Assembly (NCBI GenBank): GCA_013178015.1 | Contig: JABLXR010000030.1 | Coordinates: 51,238-115,237 of the forward strand | Direction: 5' to 3' | Length of the DNA stretch: 64,000 nt | From: Anaerolineae bacterium | GTDB lineage: Bacteria; Chloroflexota; Anaerolineae; DRVO01 | The notes under the pieces: model-generated | The model's input: the letters and a program-made list of their open reading frames with translations, nothing else | Databases searched by the model: none | What the model was told of the DNA's origin: nothing | Position numbers and translations under genes: made by a program | Shown here: positions 10,675 through 54,478 of the stretch, piece by piece | Position numbering within the stretch: position 1 is the first letter of the stretch | How the letters are laid out: the number at the start of each line of letters is the position of its first letter

Positions 10675-11625
10675 ATGACCACGTTAGGTGACAGGGCCGT
10701 CCTCGGCGGCAAGAGGATGGGCATTGTGCGCTTGAGCCCCAGGGTAAGACGGAAACTGCGGAACGGCCTTCTGTTTACGTCTCCATGGCTCCTTGGCACG
10801 CTCATATTCACCATATACCCCATTGTGGCTTCTCTGTACTACAGCTTCACCGACTACAGCGTTCTCGCGTCCGGCCGGTGGGTTGGTCTCCTGAACTACC
10901 GAGTCATGTTCTTGCGAGACGAACGCTTCTACACTGCGCTCAAGAACACCCTCGTCTATGCTTGCCTTCTCGTGCCCATGAGTCTGACCCTGGGCATCAG
11001 CATCGCGGCCCTTCTGAATCTCAAGCTGAGGGGCATGGGGATATACCGCGCTGCCATCTACCTGCCCACGGTCATCCCGGCCGTAGCGGCCTCCATCGTG
11101 TGGCTGTGGCTCCTGGATCCTCAGTACGGGGTGGCGAACGACATTCTGCGGCGCCTGGGGGCACCGACGATTGGATGGCTGAGCGACCCAAAGTGGGCCA
11201 AACCCTCCCTGGTGCTTATCAGCACGTGGGGGCTGGGGACCACCGTCATCATCTATCTCGCAGGGCTCCAAGATGTACCGGTGTCGCTCTATGAGGCCGC
11301 CGAACTGGACGGTGCTGGCGTGCTGCGGCGATTCCGGCACGTGACCCTGCCCATGCTCAGCCCGACCATCTTCTTCAACTTGGTGATGACGCTCATAGGC
11401 GCGTTTGGCTACTTCACCACTGTGTTCGTGCTCACTCGAGGGCAGGGAGGGCCAGTGGACTCCACGCTGGTCTACTCCCTTCTGCTCTATAACAACGCCT
11501 TCGTCTACTACAAGATGGGCTACGCTTCCGCCATGGCCTGGATTCTCTTCATCATGGTGTCACTGGTCACCTACCTGGTGTTCAGAAGCTCCGGTCGGTG
11601 GGTGTACTACGGGGGTGGCGGGTGA
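10675..11625 (+). CDS. ABC transporter permease (MalF/UgpA-like, binding-protein-dependent inner membrane component)
   Basis: Six TM helices and the EAA loop EAAELDGAGVLRRFRHVTLPMLSP. Adjacent to a second permease. Confidence 0.85.
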   Translation: MTTLGDRAVLGGKRMGIVRLSPRVRRKLRNGLLFTSPWLLGTLIFTIYPIVASLYYSFTDYSVLASGRWVGLLNYRVMFLRDERFYTALKNTLVYACLLVPMSLTLGISIAALLNLKLRGMGIYRAAIYLPTVIPAVAASIVWLWLLDPQYGVANDILRRLGAPTIGWLSDPKWAKPSLVLISTWGLGTTVIIYLAGLQDVPVSLYEAAELDGAGVLRRFRHVTLPMLSPTIFFNLVMTLIGAFGYFTTVFVLTRGQGGPVDSTLVYSLLLYNNAFVYYKMGYASAMAWILFIMVSLVTYLVFRSSGRWVYYGGGG

Positions 11626-42136: not shown

Positions 42137-42310
42137 CATGCACAGGGCGCGCGTGGGCGCGCGCACTCCTCGAACGGGGGGTGCTCCGGGCGGGGTGGCA
42201 TATGTGCAGGGCGCGCGCACTCCTCGGGCGAGGGTGCTCCGCGCGCGGTGGGCACCTGTGCAGGGCGCGCGTGGGCGGGCGCACTCCTCGAGGGAGGGTC
42301 TAGTGCAGCG
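42137..42310. repeat. Intergenic GC-rich tandem repeat, ~55-65-bp unit in ~3 copies (core tgtgcagggcgcgcg[tgggcgNgcg]cactcctcgRRSgRgggtgctccgNgcgNggtgggcaY)
   Basis: Read directly: copies at about 42137-42202, 42201-42255 and 42256-42300, with a partial fourth start (tagtgcag). Located between the CooC-like gene and the ABC exporter. Confidence 0.7.
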
Positions 42311-42418
42311 AAGGACCTGAGCGGCGGTGCCGGCCAGAATCCACGCCCGCGATCCTGAGCGGTCACACGGTTGGCTCGGCGAAGGTACTACCGTATACTG
42401 GAGACAATACAGAAAGGC

Positions 42419-44350
42419 ATGGGCGCCGCAGAGCCGCGGCGCCCGAACGGCGTCCGGACTTGCCACGGGCGTCTCGTCGGTCTTGGCCGTCCGGCTGAGC
42501 GCGTGAGGGACGCAGGGACAGGGTCGGAGGCGGCGTCAGAGGCGGTTTCCCCGGAGGATCGGGACTTGAGTACCCTCAAGTTTGTGTTTTCGTATGCCCG
42601 CAACTACTCGAAGGCCATGGCGCTCACTATAGGGGCCATGGTGGCGCTTGTCGGACTGGACCTGGTGGGTCCGCTGGTGATTCGCCGGCTCATCTCCGTG
42701 GTGGGGGACCCGGCCATGGGGGCACGGGCCGTGGGCGGGGTGGCGCGCCTGGCCTTGCTCTACCTCGGCGTCTCGGCCCTTCGGGGGGTCTTCGAGTTCG
42801 TGAGCAGCTACATGGGGCACGTGGCCGGCTGGGGCGTGGTGGCGGACACCCGCCGGCTCACGTACCAGCACGTGCAGCGGCTGTCCCTTCGCTTCTACGA
42901 GGACCAGAAGACGGGCGAGCTGATGTCTCGGGTGGTCAACGATACAAACCTGTTCGAAGCCATCATCGCCCATGCTGTTCCCAACACGCTGGTCAACGTG
43001 CTCACCTTGATCGGGATCAGCGCCATACTGACGGTGCTGAACTGGAGGTTGATGCTGCTGACGTTGGTACCGGTACCTCTTGTTGTCGTGGCCATGCGCG
43101 CCTTCGCCAAATACGTGCGTCCTGCCTTCCGCGATCGGCAGAAGGAATTGGCCGAGCTCAATGCCTCCATCAACGACAACCTGTCGGGCATCCGGGAGAT
43201 CAAGGCCTTCAGCCGCGAGGAGTCGGAGGCGGCGCGGGTAGGGCGGCACATAGATCGCTACCGGGATTCGTTGCTCCGGGCACTCCGGCTTATGGCGACG
43301 TTCAATCCCTTCGTTCAGTTCTCGTCCCAGATTGGCTACATCATCGTGATCTACTTCGGCGGTCGCCTGGCCTTTCAGAACGTACTGCCGGTGGCCGACC
43401 TGATCACCTTCTTCCTCTACCTGGAGCGGTTCTACCAGCCGGTCCGGATGTTGGCGGGAAGCTGGGAGCAGGTGCAGGAAGCTCTGGCGGGGGCCGATAG
43501 GGTAGCGGAGCTACTGCAGCAGGAGCCCGAGGTGAGCGAGCGGCCGGGAGCGGTGGCTCTCGCTCGTCGGGCCGAGGGGCACATCCAATTCCACAACGTC
43601 AGCTTCCGGTATGACAAGGGCGAGATGGTACTGCGTCACGTAGACCTCGATATCCCTGCCGGGACGGTAGTGGCCCTGGTGGGGCCAACGGGCGTAGGCA
43701 AGACCACACTCGCGAGTCTCATCCCGCGCTTCTACGACGTGACGGAAGGGTCCATCACTCTTGACGGGCACGATCTGCGGGACCTAACGCTCAAGAGCCT
43801 GCGCGAGCAGATCAGCATGGTGCTCCAGGACGTGTTCTTGTTCCACGGCACGGTGAGGGAGAATATCCTCTTTGGCCGCCCCAACGCTACCGACGCCGAG
43901 GTGATCGAGGCGGCCAAGGTGGCCAACGCTCACGACTTCATCGTCAACGACCTGTCGGATGGCTACGACACCATCATCGGCGAACGCGGGGTGAAGCTGT
44001 CAGGCGGACAGAAGCAACGCATCTCCATCGCTCGGGCAGTGCTCAAGGATGCACCCATCCTGATCCTGGACGAAGCTACCTCGAGCGTGGACACCGAGAC
44101 CGAGTTGCTCATCCAGCAGGCCCTGGATCGCCTTACCGAAGGCCGGACTACGCTGATCATCGCCCATCGGCTCTCCACTATCCGCAATGCGGATCAGATC
44201 GTGGTTCTGGCTGAGGACGGCATCGCGGAGATGGGCACACACGCGGAGCTGATGGCCCGGGACGGCCTCTACCGACACCTGTGCGAGATTCAGACGCGCG
44301 TGGCCCAGGGCGACCTCGCTGCAGCCAGGAGTCAGCGCCGCACGGCATAG
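42419..44350 (+). CDS. ABC exporter, fused transmembrane and ATP-binding domains (MsbA/multidrug-type)
   Basis: Six TM helices followed by the NBD with Walker A (GPTGVGKTT), signature LSGGQKQRISIARA and Walker B ILILDEATS. Start uncertain (ORF is open from 42371; the ATG at 42419 has a GAAAGG Shine-Dalgarno). Confidence 0.85.
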   Translation: MGAAEPRRPNGVRTCHGRLVGLGRPAERVRDAGTGSEAASEAVSPEDRDLSTLKFVFSYARNYSKAMALTIGAMVALVGLDLVGPLVIRRLISVVGDPAMGARAVGGVARLALLYLGVSALRGVFEFVSSYMGHVAGWGVVADTRRLTYQHVQRLSLRFYEDQKTGELMSRVVNDTNLFEAIIAHAVPNTLVNVLTLIGISAILTVLNWRLMLLTLVPVPLVVVAMRAFAKYVRPAFRDRQKELAELNASINDNLSGIREIKAFSREESEAARVGRHIDRYRDSLLRALRLMATFNPFVQFSSQIGYIIVIYFGGRLAFQNVLPVADLITFFLYLERFYQPVRMLAGSWEQVQEALAGADRVAELLQQEPEVSERPGAVALARRAEGHIQFHNVSFRYDKGEMVLRHVDLDIPAGTVVALVGPTGVGKTTLASLIPRFYDVTEGSITLDGHDLRDLTLKSLREQISMVLQDVFLFHGTVRENILFGRPNATDAEVIEAAKVANAHDFIVNDLSDGYDTIIGERGVKLSGGQKQRISIARAVLKDAPILILDEATSSVDTETELLIQQALDRLTEGRTTLIIAHRLSTIRNADQIVVLAEDGIAEMGTHAELMARDGLYRHLCEIQTRVAQGDLAAARSQRRTA

Positions 44351-44358
44351 AACGATAG

Positions 44359-44485
44359 GTGATGCGTGATGCGTGATGCGTGATACGTGATACGTGATGC
44401 GTGAAGAGTGATGCGTCACTCATGGTGCAATGTTTCACGCATCACGTATCACGCATCACGCATCACGTATCACTCTTCACGTATC
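44359..44485. repeat. Long imperfect inverted repeat built from tandem heptamers GTGATRC (left arm) and GYATCAC (right arm), forming a ~55-bp stem with ~16-nt loop
   Basis: Read directly from sequence. Lies between the convergent ABC exporter (stop 44350) and FrhB-like gene (stop 44470). The right arm overlaps the last ~5 codons of the FrhB-like gene. Confidence 0.75.
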
Positions 44486-45651
44486 GCCTTCCGTCGTGCG
44501 GTGCCCCGCTCGCGCTTGAGCCGGGAGAAGTGGGCAATCTTGGCCAGGATGCCTGCCTTCCGGTCCTGCATCTCGGCTGCATCCCGGTAGGTCTCTTCCT
44601 CCACGTAACCGGCCCGCATCGCCTCGGTGTAGAGGCGGCGTCCCCTCTCGGTGCGCACCACCAAGGTAGTGTAGCCGCGATTTGAGCCCAGGCCGCCGGC
44701 GGACAAATCGGCGTACTCGTTGGCGAACTCGACGCAGGCCAGGCAGGCAGGCCGCGCCCATTCCTCCAGCTGAGCCAGGGGAAAGCTTAGCTCCCGGCCA
44801 TCGCGGAGGGTGACCAGAAACTCGTCCTTGACGTTGATCCCGGCCACGTCGGCCTCGCTGATGCCCAGCCGAGCCTGGAAGTCCTCAGGGGTGAAAGAGA
44901 AGCTCTCCAGGCAGAAGAGCCCGATGGCGTAGGTTATGGCATCCGCCGGCACGATGCCCAGACACTGCATCTTGCGCATGGCGATGACCTGACAGGGGGT
45001 ACCGACCAGGGCCACTCGATGCAGCCGATCGCCCTCCAGGCTCTTCACGGCCGAGATCGAAGGGGTGTAGGTGGTGTAGCGGGATCCCAGCTGCTCCAGG
45101 TGAGCGGTGCCGGAGAAGTGGGAGCCGGCCGCCGCGACGATCTGGGCCCTGGTGGTGGCCACTGTCGGTGTCCGGCCGCCGGACTCGGTCCTGGTGGATA
45201 CTATGGCCCCGTCAATGAGCCGCTTATCCAGCAGGTAGAGCAGCAGAGAGGTGACCACACCCCCGTCGGTGGCCACTTGACGCACCGCAGGGTCGGTTGC
45301 CCGTGCTGAAGCGACGGTGCCGCTGTCGGCTGCCCCTCTGGAACGAGCGAACCTTTCCTGAAGCTCGCCATCCAACTCGTGGGTCACAGGGCAGACGAGG
45401 TAGCAGAGGCCACAGGCGAGGCACCTGCGGCGGTCGGTGAAGCGCGGCAGGCCCCTCTCGTCCAGGGCAAGGGCGTGGAGCTGCCCCGCGGAGCAGAATG
45501 AGACACACCCTCCGCACTGAGCACAGAGGCCTGGCTTCACCACCTCGCTCTCGAGCTCGACGAACGTCTTCACCATCGCTGGCTGTAGGGTCAACTCCCC
45601 TCCTGTGATGGTGGGGTGGCACCGGAGGCGGGACACGAGCTTTTCCACCAT
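44470..45651 (-). CDS. FrhB/FdhB-family protein (coenzyme F420 hydrogenase/dehydrogenase beta-subunit-like) with N-terminal 2x[4Fe-4S] ferredoxin domain
   Basis: Two CxxCxxCxxxCP motifs (CAQCGGCVSFC, CLACGLCYLVCP) followed by the FrhB-like N and C domains. Confidence 0.75.
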   Translation of the reverse strand: MVEKLVSRLRCHPTITGGELTLQPAMVKTFVELESEVVKPGLCAQCGGCVSFCSAGQLHALALDERGLPRFTDRRRCLACGLCYLVCPVTHELDGELQERFARSRGAADSGTVASARATDPAVRQVATDGGVVTSLLLYLLDKRLIDGAIVSTRTESGGRTPTVATTRAQIVAAAGSHFSGTAHLEQLGSRYTTYTPSISAVKSLEGDRLHRVALVGTPCQVIAMRKMQCLGIVPADAITYAIGLFCLESFSFTPEDFQARLGISEADVAGINVKDEFLVTLRDGRELSFPLAQLEEWARPACLACVEFANEYADLSAGGLGSNRGYTTLVVRTERGRRLYTEAMRAGYVEEETYRDAAEMQDRKAGILAKIAHFSRLKRERGTARRKAIREE

Positions 45652-45961
45652 GATGCCACAACCCTCGCACCGCAGCCATAAGGAGCCTAACCGGCTGCAT
45701 TCGCGACTACCTGCTGTCTCTGAAGGCGCCCTGCGGCCACCGCGCTGGCGGCACCGCCAAGCTAGGGTTTCACAGGTTCTTTACGAGGGTCGGTGGCTGG
45801 GCCGTCTTAAGCCAACACCGGAGGCTGCCGATACCTGTGGTAGAGCACGGGCGCCGGGCCTCCAACACCGCGCCTGCAGTGGCGGAGGCGCATTCCGGTC
45901 TCTGCCGACGACCATTCGCTTAGGGACGAACTCCATGCGAAGGGCTGATCCTTAGTTCTAG

Positions 45962-46510
45962 ATGGGCGAGGGTGGCGGATTGCTGACCCAGGGGGCTTAT
46001 GACGATGCCGCCGGTGCTGACGCCGACCGCCGGCGGGTGCGGTCGGTGGGGCCGGGGCAGATGTTGGTCACTACTGACCCAGAGGAAGTGCTGGCGGCCT
46101 ATGGCTTGGGCTCATGTATTGCAGTGCTAGGGTATGAGCCCAAGGCCGGGGTGGGCGGGCTGCTGCATGCACTGCTGCCTCAGAGCTGCCCTGGCGAAGG
46201 CGATGCAGCCAAGTTCGCTGACACCGGGATTCGCCTCCTGGTGGGCGAGATGGAACGCCTGGGATCCGACCGCGACGCCACCGCCTGGTACCTGGTGGGC
46301 GGTGCGGACGTGTTGCAGGGATCGAAGACGACCGCAGGCCTGAACATCGGCAGAGGGAACGTCGCCATGGCGGAGTCCGTCATGAGGGAAGAAGGTATGG
46401 CCATCCGGAGCCGTGAGGTCGGGGGCTCTGTGGCTCGCACGGTCAGATTGAGCATGCGGGACGGTACAGTAACAGTGACGCCGGTAGGCGGAGATGAGCA
46501 GACACTGTGA
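45962..46510 (+). CDS. cheD: Chemoreceptor glutamine deamidase CheD
   Basis: CheD signature GLGSCIAVLGY...GGLLHALLP, ~180 aa. Confidence 0.85.
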   Translation: MGEGGGLLTQGAYDDAAGADADRRRVRSVGPGQMLVTTDPEEVLAAYGLGSCIAVLGYEPKAGVGGLLHALLPQSCPGEGDAAKFADTGIRLLVGEMERLGSDRDATAWYLVGGADVLQGSKTTAGLNIGRGNVAMAESVMREEGMAIRSREVGGSVARTVRLSMRDGTVTVTPVGGDEQTL

Positions 46511-52442: not shown

Positions 52443-54478
52443 GGCCGCATGGCTCCGGGGCGGCAGAGGATGCGGGCCACCGCGGCCAGGCCGTACGCCA
52501 TCCCCGTGAGCAAGGTCAGACCGGTTCCCAGCCGCCGGACGGGCGTGTCCTCGAATACCAGAAGCAGGACATGGCGGCCTTGGGGCACAGGCACGCTGAT
52601 GAGCCCCAGTTCTCCCTCCGGCACGACCGGGGCCGTGCCGGAGACCTCGCCTGTGTCCTCGTCCAGGATGTAGGCGTTCCAGCCGGGGTGGTAGAAGGTG
52701 TGGAAGCGGATGACCTGAGCGTCGTCTTCGGCCTGGAACCACACCCTCTCGTAGGTGGTACCCATCTCCAGCGAATGCACCGCCAGGCGACCGGTAGCGT
52801 AGGCTTGGACGTAGTCCACCTTGGTGGTGATCTCGATCCCGGCCATGATCTGATCTGCCAGCGGCGACCAGCGGGGGATCTCCTGCACCCAGGCGGTGGA
52901 GCCGGTCATCTCATCGGCGCTCTGTTGGAAGCGCATCAGTCCCTGAAGGGACACGGGTCCCTCAGGTGGGGGCCGGACCTCGCTGTGCAAATAGGGGTAG
53001 ACCGGCAGGATGACCAGCAGGGCCCAGAGCCCGGTGAGGGCCAGGGCGCTGCGATCGGGGTGCCAGCGGGTGAAAGGGCCCGTTCCTAGGAAGGCAAGGC
53101 AGACGATGGTGAGCGCCAGCAGTCGCCAGGGGAACTGAGCGAACCTCACTAGCCCCAGGGCATCCCACACTGGTTCGGAGAGGGGGAGCATCAGGAAGAC
53201 GACGCCGAGGGTGACGGCGCCTAGGTACAGGGCACTCCGGCGCCACGCCTGCGGCAGCCGCGGCCAGTAAAGAAGGCTAAGCGCTGCCAGCGTCAGAGGG
53301 GCCAGGCCCAGCTGGAAGGACATGCCATCGTCCGGTCCCGGGAGGCTCACTCCGAACCCCCAGTCGAGGCGGAAGAGCTGGAAGGGATAGACGAAGTGGT
53401 GGCGATACTCGTAGTAGCCACCGACCCACTGGTCGGTGCGGACGTAAGCGTACTCCAGGAAGGCGGGCAGCCAGAAGATGGCGCTCAGCCCCAACCCCAG
53501 GAGCACGGCGCCGGCAGCAGGCGCCATGGTATGGATGGCGTGACCCAGAACCGAGGGCCAGGACTGGCGGGAGAGCGGCCGCCACGTCGGGGTCGAGCGG
53601 CAGAGGTGCCAGGCTCGGAGCAGAGTGTAGCCGCCCAGGATGGGAGAGAAGAGCAGCGCCACCAGGTTGCTGCTCAGCATCAGCCCGGCGTAGGCTAGCC
53701 CAGCCAGCAGAACCCCCGTGACGTTCGGGAGACGATGGGCTCGTCCCAGATCTGCCTGGGCCCCTGCCGTAGGGGCGAACCTTGTGTTCGCCCGTTTCAA
53801 CGCCATGTTCGCCCGCTTGTGCCTCAAGCGGATGCGTTGCGGGCGAACACAAGGTTCGCCCCTACGGTCGGTGGGCCGGGGTGTGGGTTCGGCCGTATGG
53901 TCGCTGGGGTGGGGTGCCATGGGTGGCGCCGGGGAGCGTTGGCGCAGGCCCGGGTAGAGGCGCCCGAAGGCCCAGAGGCACAGGGGCACAAAGGCCAGGG
54001 CCACCGTCTCTGCCAGGGAAGCCCGCACGTAGAGGTCGGCCAGATGATAGGGAGCGTAAAGGTACAAGAGGGCCCCCAGCAGCGCCCCGGGCGGATGGCT
54101 GTAGAGGCGAAGCCACAGGTAGGCCGTGAGGGCCGAGGCCACCGCTGCCAGGCCGAACACCCCCTTGACGGCCTCTACCAGACCCAGACCAAGCAGATGC
54201 AGGGCCTCGCCCAGGTAGGAGGACAGTGGGCCGTAGATGTTGAAGAAGGGATAGCCGTAGCCGAAGGTGAAGTCTGGCGCCCACCGGGGATAGAGGATGC
54301 CGTCCTGGATGGCGCGGTCGAACTGATGCAGGAAGTAGACGCTGTGGCGGGCGTCCTGGGCGCCCCAGTGGTAGCCGGGCATGAACAGGGGCCCGACGCT
54401 GAATAGGGAGAGGGCCAGGAGGAGTAACACCCAGACCCACTCCGGCACCGCCTCTATCGCGGTCCGATCAGTCCTCAC
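52439..54478 (-). CDS. Polytopic GT-C-like membrane protein, paralog 2 of 3, with ~70-aa lineage-specific insertion
   Basis: N-terminal block PGYHWGAQDARHSVYFLHQFDRAIQDGILYPRWAPDFTFGYGYPFFNIYGPLSSY is homologous to paralog 1. The insertion (…PTDRRGEPCVRPQRIRLRHKRANMALKRANTRFAPTAG…) coincides with the palindromic repeat at 53769-53865. Confidence 0.7.
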   Translation of the reverse strand: MRTDRTAIEAVPEWVWVLLLLALSLFSVGPLFMPGYHWGAQDARHSVYFLHQFDRAIQDGILYPRWAPDFTFGYGYPFFNIYGPLSSYLGEALHLLGLGLVEAVKGVFGLAAVASALTAYLWLRLYSHPPGALLGALLYLYAPYHLADLYVRASLAETVALAFVPLCLWAFGRLYPGLRQRSPAPPMAPHPSDHTAEPTPRPTDRRGEPCVRPQRIRLRHKRANMALKRANTRFAPTAGAQADLGRAHRLPNVTGVLLAGLAYAGLMLSSNLVALLFSPILGGYTLLRAWHLCRSTPTWRPLSRQSWPSVLGHAIHTMAPAAGAVLLGLGLSAIFWLPAFLEYAYVRTDQWVGGYYEYRHHFVYPFQLFRLDWGFGVSLPGPDDGMSFQLGLAPLTLAALSLLYWPRLPQAWRRSALYLGAVTLGVVFLMLPLSEPVWDALGLVRFAQFPWRLLALTIVCLAFLGTGPFTRWHPDRSALALTGLWALLVILPVYPYLHSEVRPPPEGPVSLQGLMRFQQSADEMTGSTAWVQEIPRWSPLADQIMAGIEITTKVDYVQAYATGRLAVHSLEMGTTYERVWFQAEDDAQVIRFHTFYHPGWNAYILDEDTGEVSGTAPVVPEGELGLISVPVPQGRHVLLLVFEDTPVRRLGTGLTLLTGMAYGLAAVARILCRPGAMRP
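53769..53865. repeat. Perfect 26-bp inverted repeat pair (GTAGGGGCGAACCTTGTGTTCGCCCG ... CGGGCGAACACAAGGTTCGCCCCTAC) flanking a 45-bp partly palindromic core; MITE/REP-like element embedded in-frame in a coding sequence
   Basis: Read directly. Same 26-mer family as at 2208-2233. Each arm is itself a small hairpin (GGGCGAAC...GTTCGCCC). Confidence 0.7.

Follow-up and report, generated by a model that had tools for sequence, protein, structure and literature searches.

The described bacterial elements that come closest to the one reported here include the REP/BIME elements and the heptanucleotide microsatellites (SSRs). REP and BIME elements are hairpin-forming inverted repeats that are found 3' of genes, between convergent genes as well as inside operons, where they block 3' exonucleases and attenuate transcription without a U-tract. 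Among the heptanucleotide repeats, the STRR arrays of cyanobacteria represent a related precedent. An excess of heptameric SSRs in bacteria and a slippage hypothesis are both on record, as cited in PMC4692102 and PMC4679880. Xanthomonas and Nostoc carry G-rich heptamers (GGGAATC/GGGGATT), and some of the GGGAATC arrays in Xanthomonas form inverted pairs between convergent genes (PMC4692102). The TAACTGA repeats of the Beggiatoaceae are common to distant phyla; in the forward orientation they contain stops in all frames, so that the arrays overlap gene ends only (PMC4679880). The heptanucleotide elements of Geobacter are another related precedent (PMC2700814). As for 3' stem-loops, they mark transcript ends for both classes of terminators, according to PMC13613805.

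The element considered here lies in an Anaerolineae contig, within a 64-kb window (the whole stretch of DNA that was analysed), and is a heptanucleotide microsatellite quasi-palindrome, namely (GTGATRC)8, an 18-nt loop and (GYATCAC)7. In common with heptanucleotide SSRs and STRR-like arrays, it consists of at least three head-to-tail 7-nt units per arm (8.3 and 7.3), beyond what is expected by chance, and its copy number is polymorphic between close relatives (the window and the locus L122, see below). In common with REP elements, arrays of this kind are extragenic, lie 3' of genes, including positions inside operons (L046, L095), and have the potential to form hairpins. The window contains one array locus of this heptamer; other genomes contain many. 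By its ABC orthologs, the source organism is an Anaerolineae-like member of the Chloroflexota.

A heptamer quasi-palindrome between two convergent genes

The layout of the locus is given in Table 1. Tandem Repeats Finder describes positions 44359-44416 as a period-7 repeat of 8.3 copies (88% matches, consensus GTGATGC) and positions 44435-44485 as a period-7 repeat of 7.3 copies (79% matches, consensus TCACGCA), the latter also with a 21-nt super-period (score 81). The left arm is built, in this order, of three GTGATGC units, two GTGATAC units, GTGATGC, GTGAAGA and GTGATGC; the right arm consists of GTGATRC units on the minus strand and, on the plus strand, reads TCAC GCATCAC GTATCAC GCATCAC GCATCAC GTATCAC TCTTCAC GTATC. 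These values agree with an earlier note on this DNA, which had described arms of about 8 and about 7 heptamers around a loop. When the window was searched for the pattern GTGATRCGTGATRC with at most one mismatch, every one of the 10 matches fell here (0.05 matches expected from shuffles). This is the single heptamer array locus of the window, and its hairpin is by far the longest inverted repeat there, the next unrelated one having 28-nt arms.

Table 1. Features of the heptamer locus and of the genes that flank it (window positions)
Feature	Position	Strand	Basis
ABC exporter (ABC_membrane + ABC_tran)	42371..44350	+	Pfam; orthologs
Full predicted hairpin including flanking pairs	44345..44499	.	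60 pairs round central loop; RNA folds on either strand
Left (5') arm, 8.3 tandem heptamers	44359..44416	+	TRF score 88, sequence, pattern search
Central spacer/loop, 18 nt (GTCACTCATGGTGCAATG...)	44417..44434	.	sequence; alignment with L122
Right (3') arm, 7.3 inverted heptamers	44435..44485	-	TRF score 67; inverted repeats I1-I11
FrhB/FdhB-like Fe-S protein gene	44470..45651	-	Pfam

Folding of the segment 44345-44500 as RNA yields -96.1 kcal/mol (z -10.7) for the plus strand and -90.9 kcal/mol (z -9.8) for the minus strand, and folding as single-stranded DNA yields -59.1 kcal/mol (z -10.7); in all three cases alike, none of 200 shuffles matched the native energy. The minimum-energy structure of the plus strand comprises 63 pairs (30 G-C, 26 A-U and 7 G-U), with 60 of them around the central loop, so that the stem of at least 50 bp that had been proposed earlier withstood the folding check. 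The hairpin is real and, as a single strand, very stable on both strands. A search of the window against Rfam gave no match at the gathering threshold; the sub-threshold matches were to miRNA-precursor models only and reflect the shape of a long hairpin.

The hairpin fills the 119-nt gap between the stop codons of the two convergent genes. The ABC exporter ends with TAG at 44348-44350, and the left arm begins 8 nt later; the true start of this gene is probably downstream of 42371, as judged from the length of its orthologs (594-613 aa). The FrhB-like gene ends with a TGA (44470-44472) inside the right arm, and its last five codons (AIREE) are made of repeat units too; the C-terminal tail of the protein is not conserved among homologs. 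The placement between convergent stops and the overlap with the 3' end of the FrhB-like gene are thus as the earlier note had described them. In the GTGATGC orientation, the array contains TGA in all three frames every 21 nt and, therefore, may adjoin or replace the stop codon of the preceding gene harmlessly, the FrhB-like gene being an example of an array unit that supplies the stop codon. The antisense array (GCATCAC) contains neither a stop nor a start codon, so that spurious ORFs cross it on the opposite strand, for example 44000-44419(-) and 44178-44438(-), which justifies the original warning against annotating such frames.

The sense array (44356-44416) is dense in translation signals: AGGTGAT, 5 nt past the ABC stop, is complementary to the 3' tail of 16S RNA, and each 21 nt contains a mini-ORF ATG-CGT-GAT-GCG-TGA (M-R-D-A-stop). 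Other repeats are also present in the window. The spacer upstream of the ABC exporter (42155-42271) contains 2.2 copies of a GC-rich 54-nt unit with 85% matches, the units being internally palindromic (GGGCGCGCGCACTCC...GGGTGCTCCGCGCGC). The region 53767-53916 contains a perfect 28-nt inverted repeat (CCGTAGGGGCGAACCTTGTGTTCGCCCG and its complement, with 45 nt between them) that overlaps a 33-nt tandem repeat at 53853-53916; a small hairpin of this region, GGGCGAAC-N5-GTTCGCCC, recurs at 2212-2232 and may be a REP-like dispersed element of the source genome.

Several known types of elements were considered as candidate identities and rejected. A canonical intrinsic terminator would have a short GC-rich stem with a U-tract within 0-2 nt of it; the flanks are free of T-runs (no U-tract follows on either side: CGCCUUCCGU on the plus strand, CCUAUCGUUCUAUG on the minus strand) and a consensus scan for terminator-like sequences did not pick up this locus, in line with the earlier note. 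A REP, BIME or REPIN element in the sense of a fixed 20-40-nt dispersed palindrome does not match an element that consists of variable 7-nt units and has no further copy in the window. A CRISPR array would consist of 23-50-nt repeats with unique spacers, and the 7-nt units here are contiguous and spacer-free. The R''(RYYYAAC)...R'(GTTRRRY) boxes of an integron attC site are absent from the sequence, and the flanks are housekeeping or operon genes, not cassettes. In a phase-variation SSR contingency locus, the gain or loss of a unit would shift a reading frame or the spacing of a promoter. Here the stop codon of the ABC gene lies 8 nt ahead of the array, and translation of the FrhB-like gene ends with the first TGA that the right arm offers in frame; the units past this TGA are untranslated and, hence, a change in copy number alters neither protein.

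The same locus in relatives

An independent short-read contig (Logan SRR6186653, L121) carries the identical FrhB gene and ends within the right arm, at 11179-11200, with identical sequence; the sequence of the right arm is thus independently supported. In the closest relative, L122 (94% identity for the ABC exporter and 91% for FrhB), the same convergent gene pair is separated by a 49-nt spacer with approximately 3+2 units (aacgataa GTGACAC GTGAAGA GCGATGC gcaaatcattgtgctatgc GTCACGC ATCGCGT ATCA), and the FrhB gene likewise ends at the right-arm TGA (MIRDA). The MAFFT alignment of the window with L122 contains two gaps of exactly 35 nt (5 units), one per arm, with the flanks and the loop conserved (TCATKGTGCWATG). 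The two alleles are present in the sequencing runs SRR6186653 and SRR24635347. Since L122 keeps the gene pair, the loop and fewer units in each arm, the heptamer element was already present in the common ancestor of the two, and a symmetric change of ten units, with both genes intact, has occurred after their split. The shorter hairpin of L122 is of low stability (-23 and -29 kcal/mol, z -1.5 and -2.2). An assembly artefact was rejected as well: distinct real genes lie on both sides of the array, L122 has the same core and L121 matches the right arm.

This comparison of copy number between relatives, which the earlier note had called for, speaks for the microsatellite origin that it had envisaged, with the window exceeding L122 by five units in each arm, and the repeat is one that expands fast. 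The note had also held that an array variable in relatives with no effect on the neighbouring genes would count against a role; this objection applies in part, inasmuch as the copy number does vary and the genes are intact, and variable copy number with intact neighbours fits either a tolerant hairpin role or no role.

The ABC orthologs with 81-90% identity (L126-L132, L156-L159) lack the heptamers, and all of them have a compact GC-rich hairpin just past the ABC stop; at seven more distant orthologous loci, this hairpin, terminator-like in appearance, takes the place of the heptamer hairpin. Folded alone, the ortholog hairpins tested yield approximately -31 to -36 kcal/mol (z -5 to -6), and the whole ortholog spacers fold to -45 to -48 kcal/mol; one of the hairpins is followed by GGUUUUACG and another by GUGUUUCAUU, and a UUUU run comes after one of them. 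With a compact hairpin at every other orthologous locus, the heptamer hairpin holds a conserved terminator position.

The 81-90% orthologs have another gene downstream, either cheW or a convergent CxxCxxCC gene. Synteny is lost at the hairpin (window 44350-46510 versus L126 5785-9785 and L128 5788-6411): the ABC exporter is followed in these relatives by cheW-cheA-cheC-cheD or by the convergent CxxCxxCC gene, and in the window and L122 by the inverted FrhB-like gene and then cheD-cheB-cheR. The hairpin thus sits at a rearrangement junction. A metagenome scan with the FrhB protein returned a single distant locus, at 29% identity.

Heptamer arrays in other genomes

A scan for three consecutive GTGATGC units in 185,579 species genomes yielded at least 120 loci; among the matches listed, assigned by record title, 54 come from Chloroflexota, 21 from Verrucomicrobiota, 6 each from Vulcanimicrobiota and Desulfobacterota, 5 from Nitrospirota and 5-6 from Acidobacteriota, with other groups making up the remainder. 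GTGATGC arrays are, therefore, not private to the source genome and occur in many phyla. Viral contigs, which were scanned for the same triple unit and for three heptamers of the same composition, contained 17 GTGATGC loci versus 2, 2 and 2 for the composition-matched heptamers, an approximately 8-fold excess. The array-bearing loci listed (808 kb) contain 261 arrays of period 7, as compared to at most 16 for periods 5, 6 and 8-11, so that the array-bearing genomes show the known bacterial excess of heptameric repeats; these 261 arrays are built of approximately 97 different unit sequences. Within arrays, units differ from one another mostly at positions 5 and 6 (and 3), so that CGTGA remains as their core.

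Inverted pairs of arrays recur in Caldilineales, Oscillochloris, Blastocatellia, Verrucomicrobiae, Desulfococcaceae and others, and their polarity is nearly fixed: among the matches listed, the order (GTGAnnC)n-loop-(GnnTCAC)n was found in 34 pairs and the opposite order in 2, and in viral contigs the counts were 3 and 0, in the same direction. These polarity counts are independent of gene calls. As the ORF-based caller is unreliable in GC-rich DNA, the weight is placed on them and on flanking genes verified with Pfam. By the ORF-based calls, the flanks of the inverted pairs, among the matches listed, are tandem in 16 cases, convergent in 6 and divergent in none. Pfam confirms 21 of the 27 ORFs upstream of inverted pairs as real genes of unrelated functions, including FUR, an HlyD-family protein, Amidase_3, a RimK/LysX-type ATP-grasp protein, AlaDh, glyoxalase, BacA and FtsX. 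With the two genes of the window included, 20 of the 22 verified genes have their ends in the range of -18 to +8 nt relative to the 5' arm, and the offsets of -4, -11 and -18 mean that the TGA of a unit is the stop codon. Some pairs lie inside operons, a location known for REP elements as well: between a RimK/LysX-type ATP-grasp gene and a semialdehyde dehydrogenase gene (L046) and between a methylmalonyl-CoA mutase gene and MeaB (L095).

For single arrays at the 3' ends of genes, crude ORF calls gave 28 in the sense orientation and 9 in the antisense orientation; an alternative analysis with the arrays masked gave the conflicting result of 37 antisense versus 11, because open frames run through the stop-free antisense array. 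The arms of the family members are often mismatched and unequal, e.g. 3 versus 13 or 16 versus 3 units, and a comparison of sense and antisense fold energies of 21 family hairpins showed no RNA strand asymmetry (13 of 21, p = 0.31); strong selection on pairing is thus not evident.

A second type of adjacent arrays, (TGCGGAG)n-loop-(CTTCGTC/CGTCGTC)n, is present at three loci of a Chloroflexia MAG, SMAG_U8985 (L037 250-336 and 3252-3338; L068 116-210). These hairpins fold on one strand only, through G-U pairs (-30, -42 and -41 kcal/mol versus -12, -19 and -23 kcal/mol on the opposite strand), the hallmark, for heptamer-array hairpins in Chloroflexota, of a structure at the RNA level.

Some family members are more elaborate. 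On the viral contig IMGVR_UViG_3300009667_000015 (L146 1807-2014), there is a nested hairpin with outer arms of GTGATGC/GTGAAAC units and their complements; the inner arms that they enclose consist of units from another heptamer family (GCTACGA... / ...CTCGTGG). In Desulfococcaceae HSG8 and in a Chloroflexia MAG, where the motif is dense, unlike in the window, very long arrays in one orientation reach 30 units and several arrays cluster within approximately 1 kb (L060 4913-5122, L073 7563-7674 and L040 6774-7998).

Possible functions and comparison with known systems

What could be the function of such a hairpin? The reading that we favor, and to which we give an even chance of being correct, is that the heptanucleotide microsatellite quasi-palindrome functions, like REP elements, as a hairpin at the 3' ends of transcripts from both directions. 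The transcripts of either convergent gene would end in the heptamer hairpin or be trimmed back to it, so that it would be a bidirectional transcription barrier as well as a block to 3' exonucleases, in a manner resembling that of REP/BIME elements and of 3' stem-loops that have no U-tract. Replication slippage would lengthen and shorten the arrays 7 nt at a time, and either intra-strand template switching between the arms or selection for pairing would keep them roughly in step. Such a role gains from the 34:2 polarity, the abutment to stop codons, the complete lack of divergent flanks, the intra-operon cases and the one-strand hairpins of the second array type. The transcription barrier or stability element contemplated in the earlier note finds indirect support in the terminator-like hairpins at orthologous loci and in the similar hairpins that, in other phyla, adjoin the stop codons of verified genes; termination or stabilisation proper is suggested by position. 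Counting against the transcript-end role, the U-tract is absent, the window contains just one such array in its 64 kb, and L122 manages with a weak hairpin, so that the locus can do without a strong stem. In addition, a stem of approximately 50 bp of near-perfect double-stranded RNA is an expected substrate of RNase III, and the outcome might be cleavage rather than protection. The unequal or mismatched arms of the family, together with the lack of strand bias, argue against strong selection on pairing.

These last observations, along with the strong difference in unit number between close relatives with both genes intact, are what would be expected if the element were a by-product without any function, that is, a heptamer microsatellite that was seeded in the spacer and expanded by slippage, its hairpin being incidental. 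Such an expansion would be tolerated because a convergent 3' spacer contains no promoter and the array supplies its own stops. A general slippage bias fits the 261 period-7 arrays of approximately 97 sequences in the 808 kb of loci listed, and the excess of heptameric SSRs and polymerase slippage have already been described (as cited in PMC4692102 and PMC4679880). We nevertheless consider this account, though a serious rival, somewhat unlikely: it does not tell us why 34 pairs have one polarity and 2 the other, why divergent spacers are avoided or why the pairs lie so close to stop codons, and it leaves unexplained the 8-fold excess over composition-matched heptamers as well as the equal five-unit difference in both arms and the presence of a hairpin at this spot in every ortholog.

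A more far-reaching possibility, which we regard as unlikely, is that the CGTGA-core arrays make up an undescribed cross-phylum class of stop-codon-anchored 3'-end elements that is upheld by a shared factor or mechanism and not by slippage. The class would span Chloroflexota, Verrucomicrobiota, Vulcanimicrobiota, Nitrospirota, Acidobacteriota, Desulfobacterota and some phage contigs, with a fixed polarity, a stop codon often provided by the array, and RNA hairpins of adjustable length, the hairpin of the window being a recently expanded member. It could be maintained by an RNA-binding or termination factor, by an interaction with ribosomes or by an active copying process.

It seems still less probable that the two arms are independent single-strand elements, each a sense (GUGAUGC)n tract at the 3' end of its own convergent gene to which an RNA-binding protein or ribosomes would bind, with the hairpin again incidental. 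The composition of the unit, with its GUG/AUG starts and UGA stop (the M-R-D-A-stop mini-ORF) and with GGUGAU complementary to the 16S 3' tail, is in keeping with this idea, as are the position of AGGTGAT 5 nt past the ABC stop, the conservation of the CGTGA core with variation at unit positions 5 and 6, the 28:9 preference of single arrays for the sense orientation (by crude ORF calls), and the polarity of the pairs, which is the one expected from two sense 3' tracts of convergent genes. However, of the 22 inverted pairs with typed flanks, 16 separate genes that run in one direction, and the second arm of such a pair follows no gene of its own; the single-array counts are crude and conflict with the masking analysis, and the tract is not known to have a protein partner.

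Finally, a DNA-level element, be it a set of iteron-like sites for a DNA-binding protein (three units of 7 bp make 21 bp, i.e., two helical turns) or a hairpin or cruciform with a part in replication, recombination or supercoiling of the sort suggested for BIMEs, would suit the single-stranded DNA fold of -59 kcal/mol (z -10.7), the 21-nt super-period of the right arm and the finding that RNA folds of the family show no strand bias, but appears improbable as well, given that the polarity and the adjacency to stop codons point to gene expression and not to chromosome mechanics, and that the one-strand G-U hairpins of the (TGCGGAG)n/(CTTCGTC)n arrays argue for RNA. Cruciform extrusion in duplex DNA is disfavored by the 18-nt spacer and the imperfect arms, which makes the double-stranded DNA cruciform the least likely among the readings of the earlier note.

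If the hairpin indeed marks transcript ends, as in the transcript-end role that we prefer, the strength of a terminator or stabiliser would be tunable in 7-nt steps by ordinary replication slippage. Slippage-tuned heptamer hairpins, in parallel to REP elements, would then offer Chloroflexota and other little-studied phyla a simple substitute for fixed terminators, and an evolvable one. The arrays also matter for genome annotation: they create false antisense ORFs, shift the apparent C-termini of real genes and break short-read assemblies (as in L121), so that they are undercounted in MAGs, and annotation pipelines should, therefore, recognise them. The cross-phylum family with its fixed polarity and adjacency to stop codons, which the earlier note had missed, offers, through these shared features, a concrete way to test what lies behind the excess of heptameric repeats in bacteria, long noted but unexplained.

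How does this element compare to the known ones? In the literature searched, we found no relevant description of the unit GTGATGCGTGATGC / GCATCACGCATCAC and no description of CGTGA-core arrays, of the fixed polarity of the pairs or of their close association with stop codons; on Chloroflexi and their heptanucleotide repeats, the search gave general SSR and satellite work only. As in other bacterial heptanucleotide SSRs, the 7-nt units are in tandem, are mostly intergenic and vary in copy number between relatives, and, as with the TAACTGA repeats, one heptamer is common to distant phyla. Unlike the known heptamer SSRs, however, the GTGATGC arrays have another unit, with the CGTGA core, and do not form G-quadruplexes; the TAACTGA repeats are found for the most part directly before start codons, whereas the GTGATGC pairs abut stop codons, and neither a fixed pair polarity nor such abutment has been described for the known heptamer families. 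The REPs of proteobacteria are fixed units of 20-40 nt in hundreds of dispersed copies that are mobilised by RAYT transposases, in contrast to the variable number of 7-nt units and the one copy in the window. Intrinsic and bidirectional terminators are found, as here, immediately past the stop codons of convergent genes; the heptamer stem is approximately 5 times longer than the usual one, is rich in AU and GU pairs, and lacks a U-tract whichever strand is read. Thus, the element is a heptameric SSR combined with a REP-like 3' hairpin.
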